A DNA stretch of 55,238 bases from Candidatus Margulisiibacteriota bacterium (lineage in GTDB: Bacteria > Margulisbacteria > Termititenacia > Termititenacales > Termititenacaceae), in assembly GCA_031267055.1 (NCBI GenBank), contig JAIRZV010000033.1:1-55238 (forward strand), given 5' to 3'. The notes below the pieces were generated by a model. That model saw only the letters and a list, made by a program, of their open reading frames with translations. It did not search any database and was not told where the DNA came from. Each line of letters starts with the position of its first letter. The stretch's first letter is position 1. Below, piece after piece: positions 4,560 to 48,308 of the stretch. Position numbers and translations under genes: made by a program.

Positions 4560-4718
4560 CATTTTTTTGTGTTTTTAATAATATGAAATATAAACTGCCT
4601 ATGACTGTTAAGTAAGAATTAAGGGGAAAATCCATACAACAAAAAAAATCGATACATTTTTTGCATATTTGCCGTCGATAAGTGTCTGTATATAGAAACT
4701 ATGCGGGGGAAACTGTCC

Positions 4719-4799
4719 ATGCTAAATAAAATAAAAACGCTGTTCGGCGCATGTGTTTTTCTGCTGGGGATAACAGCGTTTCTGTCGGCCGCCGGTTCT
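4719..4799 (+). other. Sec-type signal peptide of the giant protein
   Basis: Basic n-region (KIK), hydrophobic core LFGACVFLLGITAFL, and an SAAG-type cleavage region. Confidence 0.7.
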
Positions 4800-22700: not shown

Positions 22701-23327
22701 CTGGGCGGCGTGAAATACGCTCCGGCATTAGACGCGACTGCGCTGCCGGTGGTGCAGGAAACTCCGACCGCCGAACCGACCGCCAATATTGTGCTCACGT
22801 ACAGCGAAGCGGCGGCCAAGCAAGTCGACGGCAAGACGGACTCTTTCCGCATCTTCTATCTCGATCCGGTCAAGAATGAATGGGTGATCGTGCCCGGTCA
22901 GGAAGCCAAAGAAACCAACGGTATCACCGCGCACGACAAAGAAAAACGTACGCTGTCTGCTCCGGTCATCGGCTTTGGCATGTACAAGATTTTTGACACG
23001 ACTACCTTTGCGGATAATTTGAAAGATGTGCATATGTTCCCGAATCCGTACAAAGGCAACGACGGCGATCTGTCCAACGGCGAAGACGGCTATGCCAACC
23101 GCGATCAGATCGTGCTCGAAAATATCACGAAGACCACGCGGGCGAAGATCTACACGATCTCCGGCGAATTGGTGACGACGCTGGAAGATCCGAACACGAG
23201 CACGCACAGCCTGAAGTGGGATTTGACCAATAGCCGCGGCGCCAAAGTGGCTTCGGGCATCTACATCATCTTGCTGACGGACGAAGAAGGCCATAGATTT
23301 ATCGGCAGATTGACCGTCGTGAGATAA
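4719..23327 (+). CDS. giant secreted surface protein (~6,202 aa): FG-GAP/integrin-alpha-like repeats, Ig-like module array, FlgD-Ig/T9SS-type C-terminal domain
   Basis: Single open frame 4701-23327. The ATG at 4719 is preferred because GGGGGA lies 8 nt upstream. Signal peptide MLNKIKTLFGACVFLLGITAFLSAAG. Many DxNxDGxxD...GAP...G+VY+ repeats. At least 13 module-boundary motifs of the D-x-x-x-P-P type. C-terminal FPNPY...SGIYI domain. Confidence 0.9.
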   Translation: MLNKIKTLFGACVFLLGITAFLSAAGSYLETENNLYDIPIMTQEGNPTVDTKLTIGKHVFSGAIKQGSNNPFLNNSGGNHRVYTPAAYNVMSTDSNKNYIIPSGENYIHGSGQGEQRYEMRRPNYSTSEKLLPGFPAMAKNMVAKKDDSIFDVYPGTANIINHTDFKISFKIYATLTVTDNGNLSDFQPGNTNKYAFTTPYMNLASLNVIIQETPPGNSTTSTNVWTFDKIMSGNIILRREKTRVSLGGYTADAEVWTTTPFVIPGLRDNLAYGFDFFREGEMESGTTVYFEVQVPRAGDPNNYSQYSHTYITAGVPFLDNIVSKNTETGMSDDISNEVLHSQLYGWTADGGKDINGDGFPDLIVGDPYYKYTNASNGSKQTGRVYVYFGGPDKILDSIKDLPSPDIIIEDRPTIAVGSRDREFGYKVKLADINNDGFADILVGQPSYATDSLSINQGRILIYYGGKWSRDGKPHMNITDKNMIVSPSIIINSDKDILSTGDPYRDPLFGAVFDVGDINGDGYADIVAKIGNDVDYKNNFIYVISGQEISSGTNADLSRLTKHVDLKNNLQRSSIYAVAESEVAIIGDMNKDGINDFAVSYPRLDEGYSQSYSDVRVFYGRKGVLDHGGSYGYTNPNILLMDKSENNDYFGISLAGGDINRDGCADLIIGKLTTSADKNTGKVVVLLGQEGVNKANYTYNGDDPNQTSGGVFAISDPLQPDPAAKETASQFGLKVAVADVNNDSYDDILIGAPYYGGSEIGAVYLVLGTGIEATQKIQDNHFHKFVITGREAHAHYGMTIANLGDFNQNGYNDILIGAPGFYGDSFFRGYPMASGDKNYMTEHNIDIFSNTKGIDNALPGILLVSANPQDQEIAWNESINTINLVLFDRGKAGLEFSSIQVELYDPATDRIVATLLNSAMERGIPNGQSERGSDYDLKSLWLSSGNYNDIGIGLPRHFDDFYSYYSGGNGYNERIASETIGSQILYRYNQTPRFIGLQFKLIPGKNIFADSKDYQLRVKVADRGGLTDISQFDEYRLSKFVLNMSTNEPTFASVSHNYRSSETSGNPGTDPIVEPGTLIKVRDMNFDGLDDFVVAYPNWSGVSNDSNTNTEWYNGKVTLLYGSAAPDFTGSTNATWFYGAKDGETNTSPFDFGASVASARLNMGQTELVNVLLIGSNTGFYPVIADPLLPNTTRTSQEMLGTFVEFNTMQEGDVNALNANNHLGKMIVLNSGSDATPDLIAVMNKTATHYQLIANSGIGSYTKGNWLPIDGGDIGKSLGGEAGATANAVQMIAARINNTDTYPSLVFGLPHKDKVIIHHILDEVDVSENKKSSGIVISSSAASINFGASLAAGYFDVKLNVSGNPVDNSSDPNKPSVQSLAIGAPKAKRSQADTGGTGYVLVIHGDKLQTMDITAKDGMEKLGTQNVNYYLRYGEQLGSNFGSSLVALKYMASPEHLAGYEGSLNRPYHDDYDDLAVGAPEYKMDGETNGKVYIYRGGEKFPTVASTAYARKDRTNLGTALANVGDVQNVRAEFLAIYSTNNGDPKSLDYLRTNTMLDTEPPVVISMFPENNQYEVTLDQKIRFTVEDISGVNSNQLNITRVIEGRDVAVVRSGVIVGGQQSINGGKNFDLQVWDVTDLDNPSLLVGNAALNVMPKRVRYVVSLNNCNWNPSEVVELKITVGDGRMIFTTNADGTVRQRLSPLVREFNYGFIAKYDANDAIKTKEIFGSRETNTYFGSSIAYVGDVNKDGYPDFVVGEYGNNSYGWMSGKAYLFLGDKDIDNMTEPAAEFTLQVGSNSSRFDANSAKFGWRVAPAGDINGDGYDDVAVMAVNSSTSGGEVFVLFGNPDPRIVGKGGLKTERDRIYQVAPAPKSFPWDSDYISYHAVSIRAAANASGPDGLGYGLYGGGDLNGDGYDDLLIGAPYHDEKDIKAAGRVYVLYGGNGLLDIHARKSYKYSSVASSYAGPLMLDNVIYDATQPNSGANSFVPQAFPVGYIPNPDPKSYDMFGWSVLTGINLNGDSFDRVKTFNGISETRNIQISDLLIGAPGVEQQKGKVYIYTGKRPVAANQAVYGVDLQNKSVSGGEPGEKFGSSLANLGDISADDNKGYGSKANNLVGQDFVVGAPGYKNMSGAAYLFVSRPEQGNDININKELTVYGQKPGDQFGYTVANVGSIDNDPMGNNDFAVGAPYYDEINRFDEDGEVTSSVSLTPNVGRVYIFGTSLENTGSEENPDYVLKTSVYPSQVATGKQANAFFGAAISSLGDIDQDFSPEYLVGAPGYEIVDTTSTLNTRSNIGRVYFYTNPDTKSPIVFGPMENVYTFPIPGAPNVDLFTKTPVFDSAGHMTNRPKINYNEPLRFRVFDDRAVKLDSVMVELRPEGKNHVSRYTFVPSQTGRKYYTYVNRKNVDFFLNLGADFYYETTYNLRIYATDQKGNALDYNYEPSSNANARYNGYIYDRFGSGTIGGFNVQRVPWAMADLGTGDQDAARTISERSQYVLPYFEYSFITGTNPTGEPEPDQFELWTTWRPTGSAGSQDTNGFYEPTDNILDYFVTRASLYLKLKSASDGEISSYNILAIPAGAVTSAEEGISFNVIRSVVTTNKINYESVGSNDKRRLVFGEKGTAGMEITVTMNEDGIFTLGVWASDVSGNSMPEPRLRTFVHDEYPPKIVTGLFFETQVSGSVTTVTTVNYLPAAGSTHNADDCAINFAIVDKGAGLDVVSTNGAIDLDKFQIYLSFGRDTTTNYNLDTVITVTINVATLNTAGETEYVDISSTMNFWKLITENLTVNARHMDYPDGSNSAKPTTLSIGILEQKFTYLDWVNILVKATDNAGHGDTITYSYRVSPDYRPPQVTYGQPPLINEGEYTWGQLTISLNAYDDVNVAYLVFTVAEDDNAVPSIWNTALLAATNNNGFVLPIPNPIVQSRSITLPVTWSVFVSSSMQTSTDAVTSEIITYNLVEYIRVTESAKDYSGLARLELRPSDTARANPPDGLYHILVAFEDEQHNRSDWTTCSIILDAESETGGPVMPIVRVNYHVDSPTPNNVDVTGLNIPHAQNMPLYFSKDTSVVDLYVYAKDTIVSPQPDAMPSGWLIGDDTADGRPLGVVVSVYSPNGNRDTSGNAITVWRPRGTDGKRASSDILLNYRTQIEARDVNYSGYMMRKIPAFDLSDYVTNNELGEVIDLYVNFADNDMFLPKTFLETGRIDPSDGNSDLWSDYLFTAADAKQTIINARYPTVSYYDDKYDLESSTGIFNYHPFNYLNGLVDAPIWDSKGVTSSVQRKDVISAANAFGRESTLSRNVTANFSEAPAHIRLYYDNTLPELTDLLALGGTAGGQEYSARSYSQNKGYLRFSAKYRDRISTNLMSMPLEVHKLYYQILAVTASGEDTMVWVDTKGDSYFKDRQKKVGSSADGYWRSGSYRSYDDSGLDAGQWIYLTSPTNNKLDRDPGNTTLSTALYKYLKDARNHNKNDLSYVENEENWVTINEGYNSWLTNPESSPNINYDIPSPKQRTNLTPEEEASLEAARYKAILTVKDADGQDITVSANKFATENLTARYMVSANLSLWSVLDISDDKLREGSAYNNWETLSPVEIPVSLDVGVMYFLRVAARDQAGNFSKIAISNPVYIDNTIPNEPSYNYMDGIVLNRNRFDIDFSDNYSGIYNLRLSKGDDTIEPIYLDNQAVTKELLREWRDITTTDRPDDVSSDRTFDYKQQVLNNWKVKPDIWDKLAEGEKTKFYFYLEDAVGLSYSTIGNKGPEFSFVRDTLAPTFDPSWDSSPNGVVSIVDETSKNIHYYTQDETLGLNVKPLEAHLIAVTDLASDWVVATSNTDPRDPRRIDPTLGYFEDEYHAYDDLRHIQDFSFEWEGDHEIRKPWYVQLSKAMERTYKSNIDFGNTQLTRPVEDTRSTINIAFLSARTAAKNDVDMFEDIAAIGSNGNYALAVHFDIDHHKDYLGDGSYDKWEEYTWGGVFATFNAGIDNDRRDATYNYTIGVMLNAEKIDTYAEPRSLIADEDSETPKKYFGYFGLVVETGGRRKVADQRVHSTRDGENWNTWKLLTTNVVVSRDAVDKTVTISIRHLNALEHEIPDVDNGSTKTKTVSANMPYVIKLVPAAQLHGTLLIDSLYVLPGVNVTPHLVASVSQNANGYDFELSTEQKLNVYTILAYDRVGNLAVQNPELLRDNTKPTWSYTDSLEDWVDEPLNRVITSNERGSGVVEGIQAGKRFIAYYHIPPRNVPGKEINSLSVPEYRKAQLRRNELEDKGLLVSANGEVTRNSLPGGRLYSNAMEEFYDAAGKEIYDANGKPMLGSGYIAGFFQAVEDDGMPIRMYNYEIVEATSSTKDVTGEHIWEYNQVRDQGYGLPSNRDKVNSRRYPTEIDTSAAGISSAGSYKLRVQAENLFGVTSDWVETEPIWYDLDAPTISIEIEPSVGEYIQVATGDYAYVMAGNTYNTQDGPTRAIEDMYVPSENGGYILQPSGWYRDSINITVNAVDILRFGKGELGADVYTIGGVGVGQIHVVTNNHGYNPANHSYDSYVFQGENNNLDGYWGTANNTTLNKVITFNLTAEGANSFKVWAVDKFGRSTPWIEKNFDLNIDRKPPVLKVYQGGQTQTTEILDPEKNTLSTYWSSANVGIGFAVDYSDGLGVGTKELHWWVNNEKQTSIALSSIPAYGVTSSIPYYPRGTTESTTMVPREGVVGGFVPKDYSPNNDDRFPPLVLNDAERKQLRDAGILDSVMSDQYDHYEWQKDSVYTEAELIAKLNEIAFVDKQKIIDAWRYSTKQTGSGERGLHYHTIDSEAFSLLDDGYFMVSVNVVDKFGNVSNTGNFGYVLKDTGKPDIQVNLGGSFQSEWYVGGEPYDDYAKTGGGPLDELTGDHMYHEGILFRAQVGDMFNNNVLVTRSYYPNEKITIPDYYDNIKVRTPGSGVRKVQVWINKEEPLSIEIDEGNMNQWPSLASTRFGFSINKYYGESNIAADDFASKNFVIKNNGINMIKYMVEDFAGNAVWPYEDDVTKRQWNEVLGSWVYPSDKNVIRGIKVDTRPPRDVELKIITNNNREAEGTTWTFYNSAYTDTRPDEDNYPLYTKWQNVPVRFSGKDDGIGVWYAYFSASENALSVSCDQGVTNSMDTDDQYVKTDSWENIAKLSKGGNGFNEDPGFKYATKAVGGEQGILDYASYRIVQMGEIQGTRNLTLRMADFFGQNYTVPRSSIEEVSATFNYSDPDFATANYLSVSALSKGLYDAVSNNMGGYTVKFVENDVSGNEIHQFISGGFYDMPTKNREVKDTVNSGNMVDGLDKWGGYTIKTTTISAGVVDGKEIINELTVYLWDMEVDGREDHRTATVTADRQIVLDNKIYPSAIMPVTLPIKDLNYGSGQWQELQKDEAVANGLWTSQAELKVEYVHDEGDELSGITHIMFGGDIVSVRFLGTGNVTTTESYKPGEWVPYVYRSAGLTNNYIVTLRDLLIEGTRNVSIIGVRDRADNQLVSRDVHNVTVDMHSVEFYYDVGMPRDVTNRYLIKNQHGTVLNNKYYVGVPTYNLELDFNGAAYYDILEYSKETSYTSVRSNNYADISADTPGLPRVDGKPDFWVAINDIAMKENKGDGEKTLVIRLFDRGTKDMTEQNMLTITYNHWVDNTPPTLSITGLEDKDSKWYTPNKDFNLHVVDDGAGIASVVYQIRNDDTKTVDTVTRNYAFDSGERYPKATSLNYIKIARSGKNQIDLRVEDGVGNITIYNVDGIKVNTNPPVISEVSPLQGALSGNVIYTNQKALPLRVSGTGIDYLQFEVNTPVTYNKTAQVSRNANNGYAVTVTEQGVSGDGMYTLDILAYDKLYERYGTSGAFYATASYTVLLDRQPPAFSIETGSTGRITVVDDSKVISGRISLQGVSDLQSPVQVFYMINNTGSQAWPAHISGVSSDVWTIYIRDVIEQSGRSNGSYSLRIYAQDLAGNMSATSDVSSDPYKTAAFNVPDGYIMAPRGMVIRGLDIGASANLNEQQQAMQMASSKLGGVKYAPALDATALPVVQETPTAEPTANIVLTYSEAAAKQVDGKTDSFRIFYLDPVKNEWVIVPGQEAKETNGITAHDKEKRTLSAPVIGFGMYKIFDTTTFADNLKDVHMFPNPYKGNDGDLSNGEDGYANRDQIVLENITKTTRAKIYTISGELVTTLEDPNTSTHSLKWDLTNSRGAKVASGIYIILLTDEEGHRFIGRLTVVR
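5740..7200 (+). other. FG-GAP repeat region 1 (about seven blades; approximate borders)
   Basis: DINGDGFPDLIVGDP, DINNDGFADILVGQP, DINGDGYADIV, DMNKDGINDFAVSYP, DINRDGCADLIIG, DVNNDSYDDILIGAPYY and DFNQNGYNDILIGAPGF, each followed by a G+xxVxxG strand. Confidence 0.75.
7960..9340 (+). other. FG-GAP repeat region 2 (degenerate; approximate borders)
   Basis: DMNFDGLDDFVVAYP...GKVTLLYG, SLAIGAPKA...GYVLVIHG, YDDLAVGAPEYKMDGETNGKVYIYRGG. Confidence 0.55.
9920..11630 (+). other. FG-GAP repeat region 3 (approximate borders)
   Basis: DVNKDGYPDFVVGE...GKAYLFLG, DINGDGYDDVAVMA...GEVFVLFG, DLNGDGYDDLLIGAPYH...GRVYVLYGG, LLIGAPGVEQQKGKVYIYTG, DFVVGAPGYKNMSGAAYLFV, DFAVGAPYYD...GRVYIFG, EYLVGAPGYE...GRVYFY. 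Confidence 0.75.
11640..22300 (+). other. array of Ig-like/beta-sandwich modules (approximate borders)
   Basis: Recurrent module-start motifs: DEYPPKIV, PDYRPPQVTY, DNTLPELT, DNTIPNEP, RDTLAPTFD, RDNTKPTWSY, LDAPTISIE, DRKPPVLKV, DTGKPDIQV, DTRPPRDVE, DNTPPTLSI, NTNPPVISE, DRQPPAFSIE. These are followed by motifs such as 'A.D.AGN.S' (e.g. AARDQAGNFS, AYDRVGNLA, AQDLAGNMS). Confidence 0.6.
23037..23324 (+). other. C-terminal FlgD-Ig / T9SS type-A-sorting-like beta-sandwich domain
   Basis: FPNPYKG...AKIYTISGELVTTLED...HSLKWDLTNSRGAKVASGIYIILLTDEEG...GRLTVVR matches the consensus shape of Por-secretion-tail/FlgD_ig domains (PNP..., iy...G.lv, W.g.n..G..v.sGiY). Confidence 0.65.
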
Positions 23328-23357: not shown

Positions 23358-23443
23358 CTAGCGCGGTAAATATTTTGCCCGGAGCGAACGTAACCTTCAG
23401 TGCTATGCCGTGTTCGCGAGGGCAAAGATATTTACCGCGCTAG
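23358..23443. repeat. ~85-nt palindromic intergenic element, copy 1
   Basis: Arms CTAGCGCGGTAAATATTTTGCCCGGAGCGAACG and CGTGTTCGCGAGGGCAAAGATATTTACCGCGCTAG are imperfect reverse complements around an 18-nt centre TAACCTTCAGTGCTATGC. Homologous to 30576-30658. Confidence 0.85.
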
Positions 23444-30575: not shown

Positions 30576-30658
30576 GTTGCGGCAAATGTTTTGCCAAAGC
30601 GCGAACGTAACCTTCATGACTATGTCGTGTTCGCGCGGGCAAAGATATTTGCCGCAAC
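30576..30658. repeat. ~85-nt palindromic intergenic element, copy 2
   Basis: GTTGCGGCAAATGTTTTGCCAAAGCGCGAACG - TAACCTTCATGACTATGT - CGTGTTCGCGCGGGCAAAGATATTTGCCGCAAC. Same core as 23358-23443. Confidence 0.85.
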
Positions 30659-30664
30659 ATATAA

Positions 30665-31930
<1,266 letters not shown>

Positions 31931-31940
31931 ATACTTATTT

Positions 31941-32963: not shown

Positions 32964-33003
32964 TGTCGACCTCGGTGTTTATCTTAACATACTGTACACA
33001 AAA

Positions 33004-33075
33004 AACACCGACGGTTCGATAACTGTGCCGGAGGTTTTGCGACCGTATCTGGGCGGCTTGACTAAAATTGCGTAA
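33004..33075 (+). pseudogene. orphaned duplicate of the last 24 codons of serS (in frame, own TAA)
   Basis: 60 of 72 nt identical to 31859-31930 by hand alignment. Translates NTDGSITVPEVLRPYLGGLTKIA* versus [23 protein letters not shown]. Confidence 0.85.
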
Positions 33076-33081
33076 ATAGTT

Positions 33082-34188: not shown

Positions 34189-34515
34189 ATGGATTTGAAG
34201 CAGATTTTTACCCAAAATTTGCGGCGTTTGCGTGCTGAGTCCGGTGTTTCCCAGATGAGACTAGCCGAGCTTTGCGGCACTTCGGCCAGCTATATCGGTG
34301 CGATCGAGATCGGGATCAGATTTCCTTCGATGAAGCTATTGGCTAAAATTGCCGAAGCGCTGAGCGTAAAACCTTATCAGTTTTTTCTGGAAGAGGAGGA
34401 TAACGCCGTGCCTCTGCGCCGGGCGATGTTCAGGCCGGACAAACAGAAATATTTGCTGCAAAAATATATTCTGACCCAACTGGAAACTATGCAGCGGCAG
34501 GTGAAAAGATATTAA
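34189..34515 (+). CDS. XRE-family helix-turn-helix transcriptional regulator, copy 1
   Basis: NLRRLRAESGVSQMRLAELCGTSASYIGAIEIGIRFPSMKLLAKIAEALSVKPYQFF is a canonical Cro/C1-type HTH. Confidence 0.85.
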   Translation: MDLKQIFTQNLRRLRAESGVSQMRLAELCGTSASYIGAIEIGIRFPSMKLLAKIAEALSVKPYQFFLEEEDNAVPLRRAMFRPDKQKYLLQKYILTQLETMQRQVKRY

Positions 34516-34536: not shown

Positions 34537-35406
34537 TCAAACCATTTTTTTAATATAGATCACTGTGTAATACGCCGGCACTACATCGAACGCCGTGCCG
34601 CTTCCGGTATTGCCGATAGCGCCTCCGGAGATTGTAGGAGAACCCCCTGCGGCTCCAGTGTTGCCGGTGATGCTGTGTCCATGAGTAGCGTTGTCGCTTC
34701 CGGTGCTGCCGGTAATGCCATGTCCATGAGCGGCGCCGTCGTTTGCTGTGGAGCCGGAAACAGTGGCGGTATGCGCATGAGAGCCGGTAGTGTTTGCTAT
34801 AGTAATACCCGTCGTAGCTCTACCAGTATTCCCGTCTATGGCGCCTTCCCAATAGCTATAATTATTGCCATTTCCATTTAACCTCTCATAGGTTTTTATA
34901 GAGTGCGTATGTCCCGGATCAGTGACCGTGTGCCCGTGCGTTCCGCCGGTTATTGTCACGGCCAAAGTGCCATTGCCATGCGAATGAGTAGCCGAGCCAC
35001 TGGCGGCAGCTAATGTGCCAACATCATGTGAATGGCTTGCCGAACTGCTGGAGGCAGCCAAAGTGCCAACACCATGCGAGTGTTCGCCGCCGCTGATGGT
35101 TAATTCGCCTAATGTATGATTATGACTGGGCAGATTATCTACCGTTAAAGTTGCCGTCCCGCCACCAGCGCCGCCAGATGTTGCGCCACCTTTAATAAAT
35201 CTATCCCGCAGATCCGGCATAGTTACCTCGCCACGCCCGGGTATGTTTTTTTTCTGCCCGTCGCAGATATACCAGCCGCCACGTCCGTCCAGCCAGCTGC
35301 CGTCCATCAACATGATCATGCCTACTGGGAAAAAAGTTAGATCGAGCATATCGCTGGCCAACAGTCGTTCCCCGCTGGCTATTTTGGTGTCGAATATTCT
35401 ACTCAT
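34537..35406 (-). CDS. tail-collar-domain protein with nine HxH motifs, copy 2
   Basis: PVGMIMLMDGSW...GWYICDG...LRDRFIKG...LPSHNH ... GSGTAFDVVPAYYTVIYIKK. The central insert repeats G-x-x-H-x-H (EHSHG, SHSHD, THSHG, THGHT, GHTHS, SHAHT, AHGHG, THGHS). Confidence 0.8.
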   Translation of the reverse strand: MSRIFDTKIASGERLLASDMLDLTFFPVGMIMLMDGSWLDGRGGWYICDGQKKNIPGRGEVTMPDLRDRFIKGGATSGGAGGGTATLTVDNLPSHNHTLGELTISGGEHSHGVGTLAASSSSASHSHDVGTLAAASGSATHSHGNGTLAVTITGGTHGHTVTDPGHTHSIKTYERLNGNGNNYSYWEGAIDGNTGRATTGITIANTTGSHAHTATVSGSTANDGAAHGHGITGSTGSDNATHGHSITGNTGAAGGSPTISGGAIGNTGSGTAFDVVPAYYTVIYIKKMV

Positions 35407-35518: not shown

Positions 35519-35833
35519 ATGAGTTTGCGAAAACTTTTTATCGCTAATTTGCGCAAGATCCGCCGCGCCTCCGGCATTTCGCAAATGGAGTTGGCCGAGC
35601 TTTGCAACACTTCGGTTAATTATATCGGCACGATCGAAATGGGCATCAGATTCCCTTCCATGGAGATGATCGAGAAAATTGCCGCCGCGCTGCAAACCAA
35701 ACCTTACGAGTTTTTTCTGGAAAATTCCCCCGCGCCGGTCAAAAAACCGATCAGGCAGATCCAGCCCGAATTATTAAGAAAATATGTGCTCAATCAATTG
35801 GACAAGGTAACGCGCAAAATTCGCAAATACTAA
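35519..35833 (+). CDS. XRE-family helix-turn-helix transcriptional regulator, copy 2
   Basis: MSLRKLFIANLRKIRRASGISQMELAELCNTSVNYIGTIEMGIRFPSMEMIEKIAAALQTKPYEFF. The start is set at ATG 35519, aligning with copy 1. The ORF-track TTG at 35483 lies inside the operator motif. Confidence 0.8.
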   Translation: MSLRKLFIANLRKIRRASGISQMELAELCNTSVNYIGTIEMGIRFPSMEMIEKIAAALQTKPYEFFLENSPAPVKKPIRQIQPELLRKYVLNQLDKVTRKIRKY

Positions 35834-35853: not shown

Positions 35854-39770
<3,917 letters not shown>

Positions 39771-41097
39771 ACATGGCTTCGGCAAAAGCCCCCGGGTCAA
39801 AATAATCTCCAGCGGCGATGGCCTGCGCCGCGTATTCCAGGTAGTAATTTCCTCTGGACAACGAATCAAAGTAATAGCTCACTCTGTCCTGCCTGACTTC
39901 CGTATAGGCTGGCCGGATGTTTGATTTTAAACTGTCTGCTAAAGTGCTCTGGGTGTTCAACTGCTGGAAATCAACAGGCATTAACGCCGCCGGCAGCTTG
40001 TCCGCGCAAACTACAAATGTGTTGTCTTCATAAGAATTAAAATTTGTTCTGACAATATAACTTTCTCCTTTTTTAAAAGAGCTGACTTTATTCCGCTTCA
40101 GGTCAAAATACTCCGTCCTGACCTTAAAAGACTTGTCAGCATGTTTGTCCTGTTTTTTGAGATACTGAGTGATCTCCAGTTTATAAAAAGCCGCGCTGCC
40201 GGCGTTCCCTTTGGCGGTCACTTCTGTTTCCAGGGTTTTGGCGTCGGCAAATTTGGCGATATCCAGTTCCGCTGGCTTGGCTTTGGCCTGTGCTTTTCCA
40301 GAATAAACTTCCGCGCCATCGACCGTCAAAGCGCAATTTAAGTTGCCGTTAAAATATTTCGCGCCGATATTTTGCAGTGCCATGATCACTTGAGCGTTGT
40401 CATGCGTGTTGTACCATCTGTTGTTGTGCCTTTTCTCATTGAGCACATAATTCAGCAGTGGCAAAGTATACTGTTCCATTTCCGGTAGGTCTGCGAGGAC
40501 GCGCATAGCCAGAGCCGTAAGTTTGACATTTGTGGTATGCCGCCAAAAAACAAGCCGCGTTGGTTTGAACAGCGCTCGGCCGGCTTGGTCAATATAAATA
40601 TTAGTAATGATTTCTTTTTTCAAATTCTCAAATTCTTCAAGGAAGACCTTATATTTATGCAGTAAATATAAGCGGTAGAGTTTATCCTCATTGGTCAACT
40701 GCTCGGACACTTTTCTCCGTTCAATAAAAGAAAGCATATTTTCTCCAGCCAGAGTTAATTCATAAAGTAAATAATGTCTATCCAGTTTGGCCTGATAAGC
40801 GTCTAGATCCCCTTGAGCCAACGCCTTTTTCAGAGTTTTAACAAGCTCTCGACGCATATTTTCATCTATGGCCAGGCCGAGGCTTTGGACATGATTAAGC
40901 GCGGACAAAGTATATAGGCTTAAATAATGCGAATAACTGGCGCCGCCGGGCCAGTAACCGTATAAACCATTGCTGGCTTTGTATTTATTGTTCTCCGCTA
41001 AAATCAGGCTTATATTTTTTTTGGCCTCTTTTTTTTGCGCTGGAGAAGATTCAGGCGATTTATAGGCCACGGCATTGCCGAGCAGCATACCCAGCTT

Positions 41098-41109
41098 TTG
41101 TTCCCAGCA
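41098..41109 (-). other. CxEQ thioester motif (C-W-E-Q) of the alpha-2-macroglobulin
   Basis: Plus strand TTGTTCCCAGCA is minus-strand TGC TGG GAA CAA. Confidence 0.7.
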
Positions 41110-44100
41110 GGCGTGCGGATAATAGATAAGGTAGTCCGCTGGCTCTTTCAGCAAATCGGAAAGGTCGCGGTCAAAACTGAGCTTGACCGCGCTAAGGTCT
41201 TTTAGCAAATTTTCTTCAGGTTCGGTCAGTTTGAGACTGGTCTTGCCGGAAAAATTGCCAGCCTGATCGGTTAAAATCAACTTGTTGATAGCGGTCACTT
41301 TTTTCGTTGTGTTTCTATAAACCGGCAAGGAAAATTTCACCTTGTCTTGGTTTTGCTTGGTTTGGGCGGCGACCAGCAGGTTAAGAGTTTTTGCGGTTTC
41401 TTGGTAAAACTCCGGAATTTGAATGTTGAAAACAATTTGTTTTTTATCCGCAATGGTAAAATCCTGAGTTGCTCGTCCCAGCGCCGCCGCGTCCAAATCC
41501 CATTGTGCTTCTAGAACGCCGGCTTGTTCTGCATTAGTGTTATTAAATATGACCACTCCGCTGTTGGATTTATCGGAGCTTCTAAGAAAATTCGGCAGAG
41601 CGCTTTCGATCAGCAAAGCCTGGCTGGATTTTAAGATCAATTGTCCGTGCCCAAACAAATCCGGCCCGTTGTCGGCAAAAATCAGCACTCTAAATTCACC
41701 GGCATTGTCCGGCAAATGAAAATTAAAAGAGCCGGTCTGCTCCACGGTGGATTTTAAGTAAGGCGCAAAATAAATAATGTCTTTAAATTCTTTCCGCACT
41801 TGGCCGGAATCATCCAGCAATCCGCCACCGCCGCCAGCGACCGCGCCTTTTTTACCAAAAAGCCTGCGGCCAACAATTCGATTGTAATTGGTGTAGTTCT
41901 GCACAAGCAGCGGGATCGCGGGGTTCATGGCCTCGCCGATATTTGTCCGCAAAGACGCCAGATCAAATAAGGCGTTATTGACCACCAAGGCGCAGTAATT
42001 GGTCGGCTGGCCGCTCTTGGTGTTGCTGAAACTGACCTGGACATTCACTTGGTCGCCGGGAGAATATTCTTGTTTTTCCGCTTGAACCCGCACCTTGATA
42101 TCCCGTTCTTTTTTGCGGACCTTGATTTGCTGATAGCCTATTTTAAATGATGGTTTGCCCAAATCGATTTGCTGCCGGCCGTATTTGTCCACCTGCACCG
42201 GCTGGCCTTTTCGGCCCTGCACTAAACAAACCGAAATATAACAATTCGGATAATATTCCTCTTTAATTTTTAAATCCAGGACCGGGGCATTATTGTTGAT
42301 TTCAATCAGCTTGTATTCTTTGATGGAATTAGTTTCGATAGTGACTAGACCGGCTGCCGTGCTGTAAGGGGATTTTACTAATATTTTTAGATCATCGCCA
42401 GCCTCATAAGTTTTTTTGTCCGTGAGAATATCGATACGGTCATGGTTATAACGTCCCCAATTATAATTGCCGCTGTTAACATAAAAGTCCAGTTTAGTTG
42501 TGGTGATGCGCCCGCTGCTATCCGTGCCTTTAGCAAGAATATAATAATGCCCGGCTCTGGCAAAAGATTTTTTAAGGGTCACGGAATTTAATTTGGTGGT
42601 GGTTATAACGCCTTCTGCTACTTTTTCTGGCTTGATGTTATTGAGATACTCAAAAGCATTGCCCACGCCTTTTTCTCTGACTGTGTAAATTTTATCCATA
42701 AAAATAGTGTATTCGATTTGTGCGGACACTAATTTATCGTCATTGCTCAAAGTGATGAAATCAAATTCCGCGCTTTCATTGATCTTACTGCTAAAGCCTT
42801 TTTGTTTAATGCCGATCTTGAACTCAGCCGGATAAACCAAGTAGTTAAGATATTGCGAAACTTTTTCGTTTAAACCTTTAGGGTCTTGCAACGTAAACTC
42901 CATAGTCAGAGTGATAGGATGCTTTAGCTGTTGATTGAGAATATTCTGCCGCCAGACAGTCTGGCCTGCAGGGCCGCTGTTCAGCTCTTTTTTCAGGGAA
43001 ATCGAATTGAAATAGTCGGGCTGATAAAATGTGTAATTATTATAGGGACTGTCCCAGTCCCTGTAGTAATAACTGCCGTTGTGATACTTATAGACTGATT
43101 GAATGGGAGCGTCTTTAATTGGCTGACCGGAATAATAATCGGCGGAAATAGCTATTGTTTCGACCGCGCCGGGGTAAGTGAAACCACGCTCCGGCTTGAC
43201 TCTAAATTTAGTCCGCGGAGCGCGGTAATCCGCCACCAAAAAACTGCTGACTCTAAAAAAATAATGGTCTTTTGTTCTTATCCCAATAGTGTATTCCCCC
43301 AGCTTGCAATCATTTTTCAGCCGCAAGCTGTCGACGGCGCTGGAATCAGTTTGCAGACCGAGCTCTTTTTTATAAACAAGGTCCCATTGCGGATCTCTGA
43401 TCTCAACCGTCACATTGGCTTTGCTGTAAGCCAGATCATTTTCATTGTATTCACGGACATAGAGCTTGTAATTAATCTCCGCGCCGGGTTTGTAGATCGG
43501 GCTGTCGGAAACGACAAAATAGCGTTTGTTGTTTCCCCGCTCTAAAAAACTATCGAAGTCAGTCTGCTGAATTCCAAACTCCCAGGCCTTGAGATTAGAG
43601 TCAAAATTATCAGCGGTTGTAGAAAGTATCGCGGTGTCTTCGCCTTTGCTGGCCACAATATAAATGTCCGCTTTTAGTTTTTCTAGTCCTAGAGGAATAA
43701 CGCAATAACCGTCCTGATTGGTTTGGGCTGAAGTTATTTTTTTGCCTTTGCCATCGTAAAGACTTACCGTAACGCCTTCCGCCGTCTTGCCGTTACTTAA
43801 ATTTGTGGTCCAGATCGCTATATCTTTCAGGGACTTTTTGACAATCAAACCCAGATCGGTCACGTTGACGATTGCGTTTTGAGCGTGCTGAGATGCTCCC
43901 AGCCGCGCGGCGTCCTCTGGGGACGGAGCGATGGACACAAAATATATCCCCGGGTGCTGCAAATCTATTTTTTGATACCAGACATAATTGTCCAGATTGC
44001 TGGTCACGCTGTGGCTGGCCGCTAATTTGCCAAATCTAGACAGTTTGGCCTTAACGTTAATTTCCTGGCTGTCATTGTCGAACAAATCGCTCCGCATTGC

Positions 44101-45710
44101 CGCGACAATTTTATTTTTATCGGCCTTATACACAGACGCAATTGTGTTGCGGATATTTTGGGATTTAAAAGAATAATAAGGATAATTTATCTCGACCACA
44201 TTAATGCCTGTCTCTAACTCCAGCAATGGCATGGCTTCCGCTAAAACAAGATCGAACTCGATTTCTGCATTTAACTTTTCCGCGTCGGTGTTTTCTAAGT
44301 TGGCGGAAATTACAAAATTATAAGTTATTCCGTGCTGAAACAAATCAGTGGACAGCTCCATGTTTGTAGAACCGTAGCTTGAATAATAGTAATCGTCGAG
44401 ATATAGCTTTTCCAGATCCAGACCCTCCGGCCAAGGAGTGATTTTAAGATGCTTAAAAAATTCTTGCGGAGAGACTCTTTTGGAAAAAACAAAATCAATG
44501 TAAGACAAAATTCTATTCGCGGAAGATACGCTTTCCAGCGTAAAATCTTTCTCGATATAGTCATTGCCGGTTTCAATGGAGACTCCGCTGGCGCTTTTCA
44601 CAAAGCCGTTTTGGAAAGATCTTAAAGTCAAAGAGGCGTTTTTCGGCAGATTTAAACTGGGCTTAATTAAATATCTGCTGGCATTATGTTTTGTGGCGAT
44701 AACGCTCGACCGCACTGTTTTATTGCCTTTTTTCGCTTCAATATAAAGCTGCTCTTCCAATATTTTTTTTATATTATCGCCAAACAAAGGAATCGCAGAA
44801 TATTCATTTTTTGTTTTGTCTTCCTGCAGAGGATTAACTATAAAGCAGGGTTTATTCTCGATAGTTTGATAATAAGCATCGATCACCAGGGGTTTAATAA
44901 AAGAAAAATCCAGACTTTTGCCGTTGTAAACAAGCTGGCCTGGATAAAGCTTGCCGTATTTTAGGTCTGATTCTATAAAATATTTTACGGTATTGGCGTT
45001 CAGCCTGCGTTCCGCGCCGTCCAGTTCGGGGATGAAAATCAGCTTTTCCGCGGCTATTTCTTCTCCGACGGCAAAAATGTCTTTGTTAAAAACAAAAGCC
45101 AGCGTGTCGTCATATAAAAAACCATTCGGATGCATCGCGGTGATCTTTACGCTGCCCAAGCTATAAGGAGTTTTTACTGGTTTGCTCTCAACTGCCGCCG
45201 GCTCCTTGTAATTTGAGGCCAGATTTTTTAGATCAGCGTCAGCTGCCGTCAAAACTTTAACTGTTCTTTTAATGAGGACTTTGGTCGACGCTGCTTGGCT
45301 TGCCGTTATTTTGAAGTTAAACAGTTTTTGCAGATCATCTTTAAAATAATAAGAAACGCCGAGTGTTGATAATATTAGCGTGCTTAATAGAACAGACGTC
45401 CAGATTTTCTTATGGCTTCTGGCAGGCTTCTTTGCTTCTGGAGATTTTTCTTGCCGCGGCATAATAGCGTCTCTTTTACTTAAATTTTTTGCTTTATTGT
45501 ACCTGATTATACCTAAAAATCCAGCAAAAATGTGTTTGCCAATAAATGTAATTCACATCACGGCCGCGCCGCTTGTTACTAAAACTTGTCTTTGTGCCTG
45601 CTCCGCTGGCTTGTGAAGCTCGAGTAGAGGGGTAAAGAATTCAGTTGTTCGGAAATCCCGAATAACTAAAAAGTAATTTGCAAAATATGACAAATACGCT
45701 TTTATTGCCG

Positions 45711-45719
45711 TGTTATAAT
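45711..45719 (+). promoter_or_regulatory. extended -10 box TGTTATAAT, 10 nt upstream of the DUF3800 ATG
   Basis: Read directly. No Shine-Dalgarno before the ATG at 45730. Confidence 0.4.
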
Positions 45720-45729
45720 TTATATCCTT

Positions 45730-46491
45730 ATGGAAAAATATTATTTTGTTGATGAGTCCGGCGACCCAACATTCTTTAATAAATATGGGGAGTGTTTATT
45801 AGGTAAAGATGGTTGTTCGCCATTATTAATATTAGGATTTATTCACACGGATAATCCGCAAAAAATACGCGAAACAATTAATTCTTTGCATAAAGAAATT
45901 GACGCGAATGAATATCTTAAAGACATTCCCTCTATTACTAAGACCAAACTTAATTTTCACGCCAAAGATGATGTGCCGGAAGTACGCGAAAAAGTATTTA
46001 CAGTTATTAAATCTTTAGACTTTAAAGCAGAATTTATTGTTGCCCGCAAACGTGTGGATATATTTACTAAACGGCATAAAAGAAATGAGAATGTTTTTTA
46101 TAATGAAATTGTTAGCCGGTTGTTTGAGAATAAATTGCATACGCAAGATAATATTATCTGTTTTTCCAAAAGAGGGAATAAACTTAAACAAGAACATATG
46201 CAAAGCGCAATTCAGTCAGCTATTCTTAATTTTGAGAAAAAGACAAATAAGAAAATAGAAACTGCGACAAGAATTATTATTCAAACCCCGACAAAAGAGC
46301 CTTGCTTACAGGTAATTGATTATATGAACTGGGCAGTACAAAGAGCTTTTATTAAAAAAGAAATGCGATATTTTAATTTTATAAAAGAGAAAATTGGTTT
46401 TATTTGTGATATTTATGATTTTGAGAAATATCCTGATAATTTTTACAGTAAAAAGAATGAATTTAGCCTAGAAAAAATAAGTCCTCTATAG
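45730..46491 (+). CDS. DUF3800-domain protein
   Basis: N-terminal YYFVDESGDP and C-terminal CLQVIDYMNWAVQRAF are the two signature blocks of DUF3800. The gene is AT-rich. Confidence 0.7.
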   Translation: MEKYYFVDESGDPTFFNKYGECLLGKDGCSPLLILGFIHTDNPQKIRETINSLHKEIDANEYLKDIPSITKTKLNFHAKDDVPEVREKVFTVIKSLDFKAEFIVARKRVDIFTKRHKRNENVFYNEIVSRLFENKLHTQDNIICFSKRGNKLKQEHMQSAIQSAILNFEKKTNKKIETATRIIIQTPTKEPCLQVIDYMNWAVQRAFIKKEMRYFNFIKEKIGFICDIYDFEKYPDNFYSKKNEFSLEKISPL

Positions 46492-46698
46492 CTAGTGCCT
46501 CTTACGGCAGCACGGCATGGAGCCGACTTTCACTATAGAGGAGTTGTTAATAGTATACCCTCTTTTTAGAAAAAAACAAGGAAATGTATGAGTTCTTCTG
46601 ATGCTATGGCTAAATGTTCTTGTTGAAACCTCTTAAATTGACTTAATTAAACAATACCCCATTAACCCTTACATTTTGTAACGTGCAATTACTAAAAT

Positions 46699-47082
46699 TT
46701 ATACTACCGGTTGCGCTGGTAATAGTAAGATCTTTTTAACTGTCGAATTTGTTATGCGTACGCCGCCGGTAAGAGCAGCGATAGTAACATTTTCTATTGT
46801 TGAATTAGTAGCGTGTAACCCTGCGGATACACGGGCAATTGTTACATTTTTTAGTGTAGCTCCATTAGTTAGATGTATGCCGCCGGATACACGGCTTATG
46901 GTTTGGTCTTGATAAGTTGTGCCCTTTAAATGTAGTCCGCCAGTAATTGGTGTAGTAATATTATCGGGTACTTCTGTTGTTGTATTTGAACTACTACCAT
47001 TGCTTTCACTAATAGTTTTTCCACAACCGGTTAATACAAAAATTATTAACCCCAAAATTATCCCTAATATAATTTTTCGCAT
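46699..47082 (-). CDS. small lipoprotein with ~19-aa beta-helix-like repeats (paralogous to the C-terminus of the upstream gene)
   Basis: Lipobox VLTGC after MRKIILGIILGLIIF. S/N/T-rich linker. Repeats RVSGGIHLTNGATLKNVTIA / RVSAGLHATNSTIENVTIA / ALTGGVRITNSTVKK. AAGGAA RBS. Confidence 0.75.
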   Translation of the reverse strand: MRKIILGIILGLIIFVLTGCGKTISESNGSSSNTTTEVPDNITTPITGGLHLKGTTYQDQTISRVSGGIHLTNGATLKNVTIARVSAGLHATNSTIENVTIAALTGGVRITNSTVKKILLLPAQPVV

Positions 47083-47109
47083 ATTATAATTCCTTACTTT
47101 AGAGCTCGG

Positions 47110-48060
47110 TTAATTAGCGTATGTCGTTCCTCTAATTTTAACGTTTGAATAAGTACAGTTAGTTAAAGTCAGCGTTCCGGTTAATGCAGTAATAGTAACA
47201 TCGGTTAATGTGGAGTCCCTGATTGTTAGGTTCCCGAGCATGTTGTTGATTTTAATACTTTCTAATGTAGAGTTGCTGGCTGTAATATTGCCATACATAT
47301 TACCGATTTTAACGTTTTGTAATTTGGCATTATTTATTAGGTCAATATTTCCAAACATCCTGGAATAATCTAAATCTTTTAATATTACTCCGTTTGCATC
47401 TAGATTGTCTAAATAACTTGAGTTGGTTGACGAAGCATCATCATCTTCTTTATCACTGGGATATGGAGTAACATTAACTGTACCAAAACCAACTTTCATA
47501 GCAATAGTGTAATTTTTATTCATTATCAATGGACTACCCGTTCCTATTGTATATTTTCCACTATTGGAATTCCGCCAAGGATTTGTGTTTTGATAAGGAA
47601 AAATCTCACTGGAAAATGAACATGCTCCTGTTGCTGTTTGATAACCAAGCTCAATACGGCGATTTCTAGGGATAGTGTAGGTATAAGTTTTTACATTGTT
47701 AGTAAAACTTCCTGACCCAGTATTATCTGTGCCATTTGCCCCTTGGGTGCCGATATATAGTGTGCCGTCATCAACGTCACCGACATAAATTGTGCCGGAT
47801 TTTGCATTAGCGTGATCCATGGTGTCATCAAATAGGATTTCTTGAAAAGTAAACGTATAAGTAGTTGGTGGGGGATTAATTATTGTTGTTGTGTTTGAAC
47901 TATTACTACTATCATTAGTAGTTTTTCCGCAACCCGCAATAAACAGCGCCAGCAGAATTATTATTGAAATCCACTCGCAATAATATACTATATTTTTAGC
48001 ATACTTACGCGGAAAATCTGGGGGGGGGGGGGGTATAGTTACAATATTATCTTTTGACAT
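47110..48060 (-). CDS. lipoprotein (316 aa) with C-terminal ~19-aa repeats and a 5' homopolymeric C14 tract
   Basis: MSKDNIVTI-PPPPP-DFPRKYAKNIVYYCEW-ISIIILLALFIAGC (lipobox IAGC). Repeats MYGNITASNSTLESIKINN / MLGNLTIRDSTLTDVTITA / LTGTLTLTNCTYSNVKIRG. ATG 48060 is preferred because a TTGACA-N16-TATATT promoter lies directly upstream, inside the longer ORF-track extension. Confidence 0.7.
   Translation of the reverse strand: MSKDNIVTIPPPPPDFPRKYAKNIVYYCEWISIIILLALFIAGCGKTTNDSSNSSNTTTIINPPPTTYTFTFQEILFDDTMDHANAKSGTIYVGDVDDGTLYIGTQGANGTDNTGSGSFTNNVKTYTYTIPRNRRIELGYQTATGACSFSSEIFPYQNTNPWRNSNSGKYTIGTGSPLIMNKNYTIAMKVGFGTVNVTPYPSDKEDDDASSTNSSYLDNLDANGVILKDLDYSRMFGNIDLINNAKLQNVKIGNMYGNITASNSTLESIKINNMLGNLTIRDSTLTDVTITALTGTLTLTNCTYSNVKIRGTTYAN
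48020..48033. repeat. homopolymeric tract G14 (C14 on the coding strand) inside the lipoprotein 5' coding region
   Basis: Counted directly: g at 48020, ten g at 48021-48030, three g at 48031-48033. Confidence 0.95.
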
Positions 48061-48070
48061 AAGCAATATA

Positions 48071-48098
48071 AATATACAACGTTTTTTGTTTTTGTCAA
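48071..48098 (-). promoter_or_regulatory. sigma-70-like promoter of the lipoprotein operon (TTGACA-N16-TATATT)
   Basis: Minus strand: TTGACA at 48098-48093 and TATATT at 48076-48071. The ATG at 48060 leaves only about a 4-nt leader. Confidence 0.5.
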
Positions 48099-48105
48099 GT
48101 TTACC

Positions 48106-48146
48106 AAACTTGTCACTTCGGCCACTTCGTGGCTGGCTCTCTTGCA
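48106..48146. repeat. hairpin-containing repeat, copy 1 (AAACTTGTCACTTCGGCCACTTCGTGGCT...)
   Basis: Shares AAACTTGTC-C-TCGGC--CTTCG--GC with 48172-48204. Stem GGCCAC/GTGGCT. Confidence 0.55.
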
Positions 48147-48171
48147 TAACGCAAATTGATTTTGTGTTATG

Positions 48172-48204
48172 AAACTTGTCTCTCGGCTGCTTCGCAGCCT
48201 CGAG
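48172..48204. repeat. hairpin-containing repeat, copy 2 (AAACTTGTCTCTCGGCTGCTTCGCAGCCTCGAG)
   Basis: Stem GGCTGC/GCAGCC. The CA->TG change in the 5' arm is matched by TG->CA in the 3' arm relative to copy 1. Confidence 0.55.
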
Positions 48205-48205
48205 G

Positions 48206-48234
48206 CCAAAATTTTCGCTGTGCGAAAATTTTGG
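48206..48234 (-). terminator. 13-bp A/T-tract hairpin immediately 3' of tRNA-CAU (terminator-like; includes the CCA end)
   Basis: CCAAAATTTTCGC-tgt-GCGAAAATTTTGG is a perfect inverted repeat. Confidence 0.5.
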
Positions 48235-48308
48235 TAGCGGGGGGCAGAATCGAACCGCCGACCTATGGGTTATGAATCCATCGCTCTCACCAGCTGAGCT
48301 ACCCCGCC
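48232..48308 (-). tRNA. tRNA with CAU anticodon (elongator Met or lysidine-modified Ile2; not initiator-like), encoded CCA
   Basis: Reverse complement GGCGGGGTAGCTCAGCTGGTGAGAGCGATGGATTCATAACCCATAGGTCGGCGGTTCGATTCTGCCCCCCGCTACCA folds as a cloverleaf. G1-U72 pair. Only two G-C pairs at the base of the anticodon stem. Confidence 0.85.

Follow-up and report, generated by a model that had tools for sequence, protein, structure and literature searches.

A run of 14 cytosines (C14) separates the start codon from the signal peptide of a predicted lipoprotein gene in contig JAIRZV010000033.1 (assembly GCA_031267055.1) of a Candidatus Margulisiibacteriota bacterium from the family Termititenacaceae. 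The whole stretch of 55,238 nt (contig positions 1-55,238, forward strand) is hereafter called the window. We consider it probable that the tract is a functional translational phase-variation switch of this gene, a reading based on comparative sequence analysis and supported by the anatomy of the locus, whose elements are as follows.

48071-48098, minus strand: sigma-70-like promoter, TTGACA (48098-48093), a 16-nt spacer and TATATT (48076-48071), with 11 of 12 consensus matches
48034-48060, minus strand: ATG start codon (48060-48058) and the eight leader codons SKDNIVTI ahead of the tract, as in the NCBI gene call of 316 amino acids (aa)
48020-48033, minus strand: C14 homopolymer (G14 on the plus strand), reading CCC CCC CCC CCC CC(A), that is, PPPPP
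48007-48005 and 47990-47988, minus strand: stop codons of the OFF frames read from the sequence, TAA for C15 (+1) and TAG for C13 (-1)
47929-48019, minus strand: conserved cassette encoding DFPRKYAKNIVYYCEWISIIILLALFIAGC, with n-region, h-region and lipobox IAGC, 77.6% identical in DNA to the homologous contig L027
47110-47928, minus strand: mature lipoprotein, with an S/T/N-rich linker, a middle domain (residues 66-197) and a C-terminal beta-solenoid

The first-pass annotation of this DNA had reported 14 consecutive cytosines at 48020-48033, and a read of the reverse strand together with a run scan confirmed exactly that number. It had also read the coding strand as an ATG, eight codons, five prolines, DFPRKYAKNIVYYCEW and then ISIIILLALFIAGC, which agrees with what we found: the minus strand reads ATG TCA AAA GAT AAT ATT GTA ACT ATA, C14, A GAT TTT CCG CGT AAG TAT GCT AAA AAT ... 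GCG GGT TGC GGA, and the frame is open from ATG 48060 across the tract to the lipobox. In a homopolymer scan of all 55,238 bases, C14 is the sole G/C run above 6 nt; otherwise, G runs reach 6 nt (two cases), C runs 5 nt, and A and T runs 8 nt at most. Under a simple geometric model, about 4e-4 runs of at least 14 nt are expected on both strands together. Being unique in the window and far above this expectation, the tract is not attributable to chance. It also exceeds the length associated with hypermutability, about 8-9 nt or more for G/C runs.

The tract lies between the signal peptide and the sole usable start codon, so that gaining or losing one unit would change expression. A single added or lost C would cause a frameshift ahead of the signal peptide, as had been claimed. 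With C15, the frame reads AGA TTT TCC GCG TAA and, with C13, CAG ATT TTC CGC GTA AGT ATG CTA AAA ATA TAG, so that translation meets the stops listed above 5-11 codons past the tract. C11 and C17 are both in frame, encoding four and six prolines, respectively.

The start codon upstream of the tract, also proposed in the first-pass annotation, is upheld by three lines of evidence: the lack of any other in-frame start, the position of the promoter and the arrangement of a homologous gene. Reading the sequence between the tract and the lipobox Cys codon (47931-47929) revealed no in-frame ATG, GTG or TTG; the in-frame candidate codons in this interval are ATA, ATT, ATC or CTG alone, both in the window gene and in its homologue on L027. 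The promoter is the best match in the scanned region. Its -10 box ends 10 nt before ATG 48060 and 37 nt upstream of the tract, with transcription predicted to start at ~48062-48066. Since the -10 box lies so close to the ATG, and no Shine-Dalgarno sequence precedes this codon, the mRNA would be leaderless or nearly leaderless. Its 5' end shows no significant structure around the tract (z = -0.9), and an Rfam scan found no regulatory RNA, the tRNA being its sole match. A TATAAT box (at least 5 of 6 positions) lies 3-13 nt upstream of 11 of the 28 gene starts in the window, compared with 4.9% of all ATGs. Most of these 11 starts, which include 35869, 53134, 53657, 49319 and 45730, are not preceded by a Shine-Dalgarno sequence, the box in many of them being 4-11 nt ahead of the ATG, and the start of the nearby DUF3800 gene is arranged almost identically (TGTTATAAT-N10-ATG). 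This suggests that leaderless or short-leader mRNAs may be widespread in this Margulisbacteria genome. On the same contig, IMG calls a rival start at ATG 48147, giving a protein of 345 aa, where NCBI calls ATG 48060; the IMG codon precedes the promoter and falls within the trailer of a tRNA, which is strongly folded.

When 1.84 billion representatives were searched exhaustively with phmmer, a single protein, P0007 (232 aa), shared the N-terminus of the window protein; it is encoded on L027, a 2.7-kb metagenome contig from the Joint Genome Institute (JGI). The L027 gene is laid out as GGGAG-N9-ATG, five codons, C10 and then AGAATTTTCCG, and, unlike the window gene, it has a good Shine-Dalgarno sequence before the pre-tract ATG. 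Its DNA reads AAAAGGGAG-N9-ATG TTA AGT ATA ATT TTA, C10, AGAATTTTCCGTGTAGGTACGCCAAAAAT ... GGTTGCGGG, which encodes MLSIILPPPQNFPCRYAKNTTFCCKWIAIIILLALFIAGCG, and no in-frame start follows its C10 tract. DNA homology between the two genes starts at the tract and ends at the lipobox (66 of 85 positions identical), and the pattern behind the tract is C(n)AGA(A)TTTTCCGYGTARGTAYGCYAAAAAT. There are 21 differences in the 31 shared codons, 11 of them in third positions; within the h-region and lipobox, the third-position share is seven out of eight. In the n-region, TAT GCT of the window is replaced by TAC GCC in L027, both changes being synonymous, and the YAKN codons before the h-region are kept. 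Judging by this third-position and synonymous bias, the frame downstream of the tract is translated and under purifying selection as protein.

The tracts of these two diverged homologues differ in length (C14 versus C10). The 4-nt difference is offset by an adjacent 1-nt indel (AGATTTT versus AGAATTTT), so that both genes are in frame, and at the corresponding position each encodes 3-5 prolines and then (D/N)FP. As neither gene has a start after its tract, the signal peptide requires reading across it, and translation across the tract is the sole reading that gives either gene a signal peptide.

The encoded N-terminus has the n-region, h-region and lipobox of a lipoprotein processed by Lgt and LspA: a positively charged n-region (PRKYAKN), the hydrophobic stretch WISIIILLALF and the lipobox IAGC at residues 41-44. 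This stretch is kept in L027, and AlphaFold2 predicts a helix at residues 21-42. The middle domain was matched by phmmer in P0005 and P0008-P0010 and recurs as the C-terminal domain of a few metagenomic proteins with acidic repeats (E = 1e-12 to 1e-5). The C-terminus corresponds to the DUF4097 'toastrack' family (PF13349; 30.5 bits against a cut-off of 22.9, E = 3.1e-7). The beta-solenoid is confidently modelled at residues 220-310, with a predicted local distance difference test (pLDDT) score of 80-96 for residues 240-310; outside it, the single-sequence AlphaFold2 model is poor (mean pLDDT 48.5). A Foldseek search against the PDB yielded no significant match, with generic beta-helix matches below significance. 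We assume that the lipoprotein is exposed at the cell surface.

These elements can be joined into a mechanism. Transcription would proceed from the strong sigma-70-type promoter located 10 nt upstream of ATG 48060, and translation would run from this ATG through eight codons and the five prolines at C14 into the n-region, hydrophobic core and lipobox, which would direct export and lipidation. As a hypermutable simple-sequence repeat in the 5' coding region, C14 would gain or lose C residues through slipped-strand mispairing at replication. The gene would be ON at 11, 14 or 17 C, with the signal peptide in frame, and OFF at other lengths, at which translation would end 5-11 codons after the tract. 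The OFF state may also have a polar effect on the downstream gene. A population would, in this manner, switch its envelope lipoprotein ON and OFF stochastically and reversibly. We infer both that tract length varies at high frequency and that switching is advantageous.

Candidatus Termititenax (Margulisiibacteriota) comprises uncultured termite-gut bacteria, and the ScpB protein of the window shares 97% identity with that of contig L001, 95% with that of L002 (Ca. T. aidoneus) and 78% with that of L003 (Ca. T. persephonae). Nucleotide synteny with L002 and L003 spans scpA/scpB, rodZ and tRNA-Met and then ends, while in L001 the sequence departs from that of the window directly behind the rodZ stop, with no tRNA in the remaining 284 nt of that contig. 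The features around the lipoprotein gene are the following.

48232-48308, minus strand: tRNA-Met (CAT), at which synteny with the sister species ends
48107-48234, minus strand: trailer of the tRNA, folded into three hairpins (fold z-score -5.7) and bearing CGAAGTGACAAG, a motif common with Ca. T. aidoneus
45500-48107, unstranded: low-GC islet holding a DUF3800 gene (45730-46491, plus strand) and two lipoprotein genes, GC 34% versus 48% in the window
46643-47082, minus strand: downstream paralogue with its own Shine-Dalgarno sequence and signal peptide and no tract, frameshifted at A5 46733-46737

A 36-nt trailer block ending in CGAAGTGACAAG is shared with L002, a score that none of 500 shuffles reached. 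The sequence shared with Ca. T. aidoneus stops at ~48107, 74 nt ahead of the tract. The islet combines atypical composition, tRNA adjacency and absence from relatives, three of the marks of a tRNA-flanking genomic islet; of the remaining marks, an integrase and an att repeat or other direct repeat of the tRNA 3' end, the window showed none.

The first-pass annotation had described the downstream paralogue (46699-47082) as a gene with its own ribosome-binding site and no tract. Both features are present, with an AAGGA Shine-Dalgarno sequence 8 nt ahead of the ATG, but the gene is not intact. A tblastn alignment with the intact homologue P0006 changes frame at A5, and the conserved C-terminus (…DLTITSATGSINFSNCTLQNVRVNGVLFN) runs on in the other frame to ~46643; A6 would restore it. 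The frameshift is probably real, since an independent Logan assembly has the same sequence. The paralogue is either a pseudogene or a second slippage-prone site.

Several observations weigh against a functional switch. C14 is the one such tract in 55 kb, and Tandem Repeats Finder detected no further contingency-type simple-sequence repeat in the window; genomes relying on repeat switching tend to hold many tracts. An in-frame state has a one-in-three prior by chance. The L027 find is itself subject to ascertainment bias, as a protein search needs an in-frame relative: one out of frame would lose its signal peptide in gene calls, so that the in-frame state of both genes is, alone, no evidence. 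The lipobox Cys is residue 44 from ATG 48060 (residue 40 in L027), outside the range of about 15-35 residues from the N-terminus expected for bacterial lipoproteins under the PROSITE PS51257 rule. The tract is held in the resulting extension of ~20 residues, and such a polyproline extension would stall ribosomes. In a word-indexed search of 5.8 billion proteins, the lipoprotein matched itself alone and thus counts as an orphan. A Logan contig from SRR14710922 (L026), 100% identical to window positions 46503-47979, starts 41 nt downstream of the tract and so gives no second tract length; its break before the tract is not informative by itself. Lastly, three related genomes lack the islet at the corresponding site, and its low GC and the frameshifted neighbour of the gene fit a decaying acquisition.

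The last of these points leads to the alternative of a hypermutable but non-adaptive tract, in which slippage expanded a proline run in a recently acquired, decaying islet gene, C14 is in frame by accident and the gene is heading for the pseudogene state of its neighbour. The composition of the islet, its absence from the sister genomes, the orphan status of the protein and the paralogue already frameshifted at A5 are all compatible with decay. So is the finding in T. aidoneus that C6 has grown to C10 within a plainly non-coding second copy of the 3' end of the tRNA, indicating that C runs expand in this lineage without selection or a coding role. However, a second gene, diverged in its other parts, has kept the layout of tract and signal peptide, with synonymous-biased differences and an upstream ATG led by a Shine-Dalgarno sequence. 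Moreover, both genes retain uninterrupted C runs, where a mixture of proline codons would be stable. We therefore regard decay as unlikely, albeit a serious competitor to the switch.

An alternative in which the tract lies in a 5' untranslated region and tunes expression quantitatively, in the manner of the Moraxella uspA1 and Treponema tpr poly-G tracts, is improbable. The real start would then lie downstream, at a non-canonical codon or, after a frameshift, at ATG 48002-48000. The missing Shine-Dalgarno sequence at ATG 48060 would suit such an arrangement, and, with A6 in place of A5 at 47993-47997, a textbook lipoprotein signal of 25 residues (MLKNIVYY...) would begin at ATG 48002-48000. 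We rejected this codon as an ancestral start, given that L027 has TAC-GCC where the window has T-ATG-C, and thus no ATG, and carries the same A5 in the same frame. Neither gene offers a canonical in-frame start between tract and lipobox, the YAKN codons are conserved with two synonymous changes, and leaderless starts appear to be normal in this genome.

An assembly artefact, be it a wrong tract length or a wrong join of the promoter and ATG side to the signal-peptide side, is very improbable. Short reads resolve homopolymers of 14 nt poorly, the Logan assembly of SRR14710922 stops short of the tract, and the sister contig L001 ends a few hundred bases after diverging behind the rodZ stop. Nonetheless, the tract-AGA(A)TTTTCCG junction is independently present in L027, and the left flank is AT-rich, islet-type sequence with the promoter and the ATG rightly placed. 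NCBI and IMG hold the same contig, in which open reading frames (ORFs) of 6208 and 1914 aa are intact, indicating that homopolymer errors are rare in this assembly. Equally remote is the idea that the tract is kept for a functional polyproline, for instance as a translational pause dependent on EF-P or as a rigid spacer ahead of the signal peptide: both homologues do have prolines and (D/N)FP at the same site, but selected prolines should use mixed codons instead of pure C10 and C14, the most slippage-prone choice, and the proline count is not conserved.

The cassette that carries C14 may be portable. Before the lipobox, where the window gene is closest to L027, its identity to its own paralogue is 50.8%. 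After the lipobox the relation is reversed, with 80% identity (36/45) to the paralogue and 41.5% to L027. This places a junction as follows.

47865-48019, compared with 46955-47095 and with L027 1853-2010: mosaic junction at the lipobox, the 5' side resembling L027 and the 3' linker resembling the paralogue

The change in identity suggests that recombination may have taken place at or near the lipobox. We put forward, as a rather doubtful extension based on the two known copies (window and L027), that tract and signal peptide could be a portable 5' unit, exchanged by recombination at the lipobox, which would set one shared hypermutable switch before unrelated mature domains.

Further copies were sought in several ways. 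Exact-product look-ups of the 316-aa, 345-aa, DUF3800 and RodZ proteins returned no match elsewhere, and an N-terminal profile search retrieved generic lipoproteins only. Scans of genomes, metagenomes and viral contigs by protein or N-terminal alignment gave no match, nor did a DNA pattern scan of viral contigs and a blastn search against plasmids. A phage origin was considered and rejected, PHROGs, tblastn against phages and the viral contig scan being empty for the lipoprotein and for the gene neighbouring its homologue on L027. A neighbour on L027 has a sub-threshold Pfam match to the SU10 adaptor (E = 2e-4), and a further match is to DUF3800/phrog_9243, which carries no functional assignment.

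Phase variation by repeat slippage is textbook knowledge in host-adapted pathogens, among them Neisseria, Haemophilus, Campylobacter, Helicobacter, Mycoplasma and Treponema. One of the closest known systems, Neisseria pilC, has its tract in the part encoding the signal peptide, within and not before it; its product is not a lipoprotein, and its switching is proven, in a proteobacterial pathogen with dozens of loci. The N. meningitidis genes nalP and hpuA encode lipoproteins, but their tracts lie in the mature-protein part, their starts are led by a Shine-Dalgarno sequence and they have no sequence relation to the window gene. In Mycoplasma hominis vaa and M. fermentans p78, both lipoprotein genes, the 5' coding region carries a poly-A tract. 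They resemble the window gene in being surface lipoproteins with a homopolymer near the N-terminus and a conserved signal peptide joined to diverging mature regions, and they differ in base, in having the tract after the lipobox and in belonging to the wall-less Mollicutes. Bordetella fim2 and fim3 have promoter poly-C tracts of ~12-15 nt that control a surface protein. In these genes and in Neisseria opc the tract lies between or beside the -35 and -10 boxes and tunes transcription, whereas the window tract is inside the ORF. The tracts of Helicobacter pylori fliP and pldA are shorter and mid-gene, and their products are not lipoproteins with a conserved 5' cassette.

In its anatomy, the window locus matches a classical translational phase-variation locus. 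Genic G/C tracts of 9-20 nt switch pilC, nalP, lgtG and further genes in Neisseria (PMC5953494). The genes pilC1 and pilC2 have a tract of this kind in the 5' reading frame, turning an exported envelope protein ON and OFF (Jonsson et al. 1991, cited in PMC5953494). Tracts of similar length and base are found within nalP (C 9-13) and hpuA (poly-G) (PMC5953494). Slippage in a short genic run also gives translational ON/OFF control of H. pylori fliP (C8) and pldA (poly-G) (PMC11768039), and a promoter poly-C of ~12-15 nt tunes the surface protein gene opc in Neisseria (PMC3960869). The window locus appears to differ from these known systems in its phylum, in a tract that precedes the whole signal peptide, in its leaderless-type start and in its conserved cassette.

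The tRNA-Met region bears further marks of change in the sister genomes. In L002 (BGZN01000021; 12100-12147 and 11796-11817), a second copy of the tRNA-Met 3' part (GTCGGCGGTTCGATTCTG-Cn-GCTACTTGAGCTTAAC) lies 214 nt downstream of the real tRNA, its C6 run grown to C10, and a fragment from the 5' part of the tRNA is duplicated just upstream. These duplications look like scars of recombination or integration at tRNA-Met. A derivation of the C14 tract from the tRNA-Met 3' end was considered, as the aidoneus C10 lies ~204 nt and the window tract ~199 nt downstream of the tRNA. We rejected it as coincidence: L027 ties the tract to the lipoprotein cassette, the homology with aidoneus ends at ~48107, and the flanks of the tract are unrelated to tRNA. 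The trailer, which could be a terminator or a processing signal, includes hairpins with d(GCGAAGC)-type GAA loops; a (G/A)AGTGACAAGTTT-like motif occurs in it twice, and repeats of this motif are also present in T. aidoneus downstream of the tRNA. On another JGI contig, L029 (3300042636), a truncated relative of the beta-solenoid C-terminus (P0011) lies at 800-1320, directly downstream of a tRNA-Met-type gene; small solenoid genes may occur in tRNA-flanking variable regions more generally.

Elsewhere in the window, the 6208-aa ORF extends uninterrupted over 4701-23327 (plus strand), and the 1914-aa ORF, likewise uninterrupted at 39718-45462 (minus strand), encodes a bacterial alpha-2-macroglobulin. 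Dispersed repeats of 77-153 nt with 75-84% identity occur as three pairs (23363-23438 and 30579-30655; 31857-31936 and 33002-33081; 34240-34392 and 35570-35722). The first two pairs lie mostly between ORFs, and the third lies in two small paralogous ORFs of helix-turn-helix (HTH) type, which flank a repeat-containing gene (34537-35406) like the tail-collar/YmaF-like ORFs of L003 and L029. Three pairs of ORFs of the same length in the window were compared and found to be unrelated.

To our knowledge, phase variation through repeat slippage has not been described in Margulisbacteria or in multi-layered termite-gut symbioses. The locus also carries a warning for annotation, in that two pipelines assigned two starts (316 and 345 aa) to one gene, and OFF alleles would lose their signal peptide in gene calls and escape protein searches. 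If the tract is indeed a switch, it would offer a concrete locus for metagenomic time series. A portable cassette, if real, would point to modular phase-variable envelope proteins in an uncultured ectosymbiont lineage or in its mobile elements. Cells of Candidatus Termititenax reportedly attach to spirochetes that are themselves attached to protists, and a switched envelope lipoprotein in such an ectosymbiont would, if confirmed, point to frequency-dependent pressure on the cell surface, exerted by phage, partner recognition or protist grazing.

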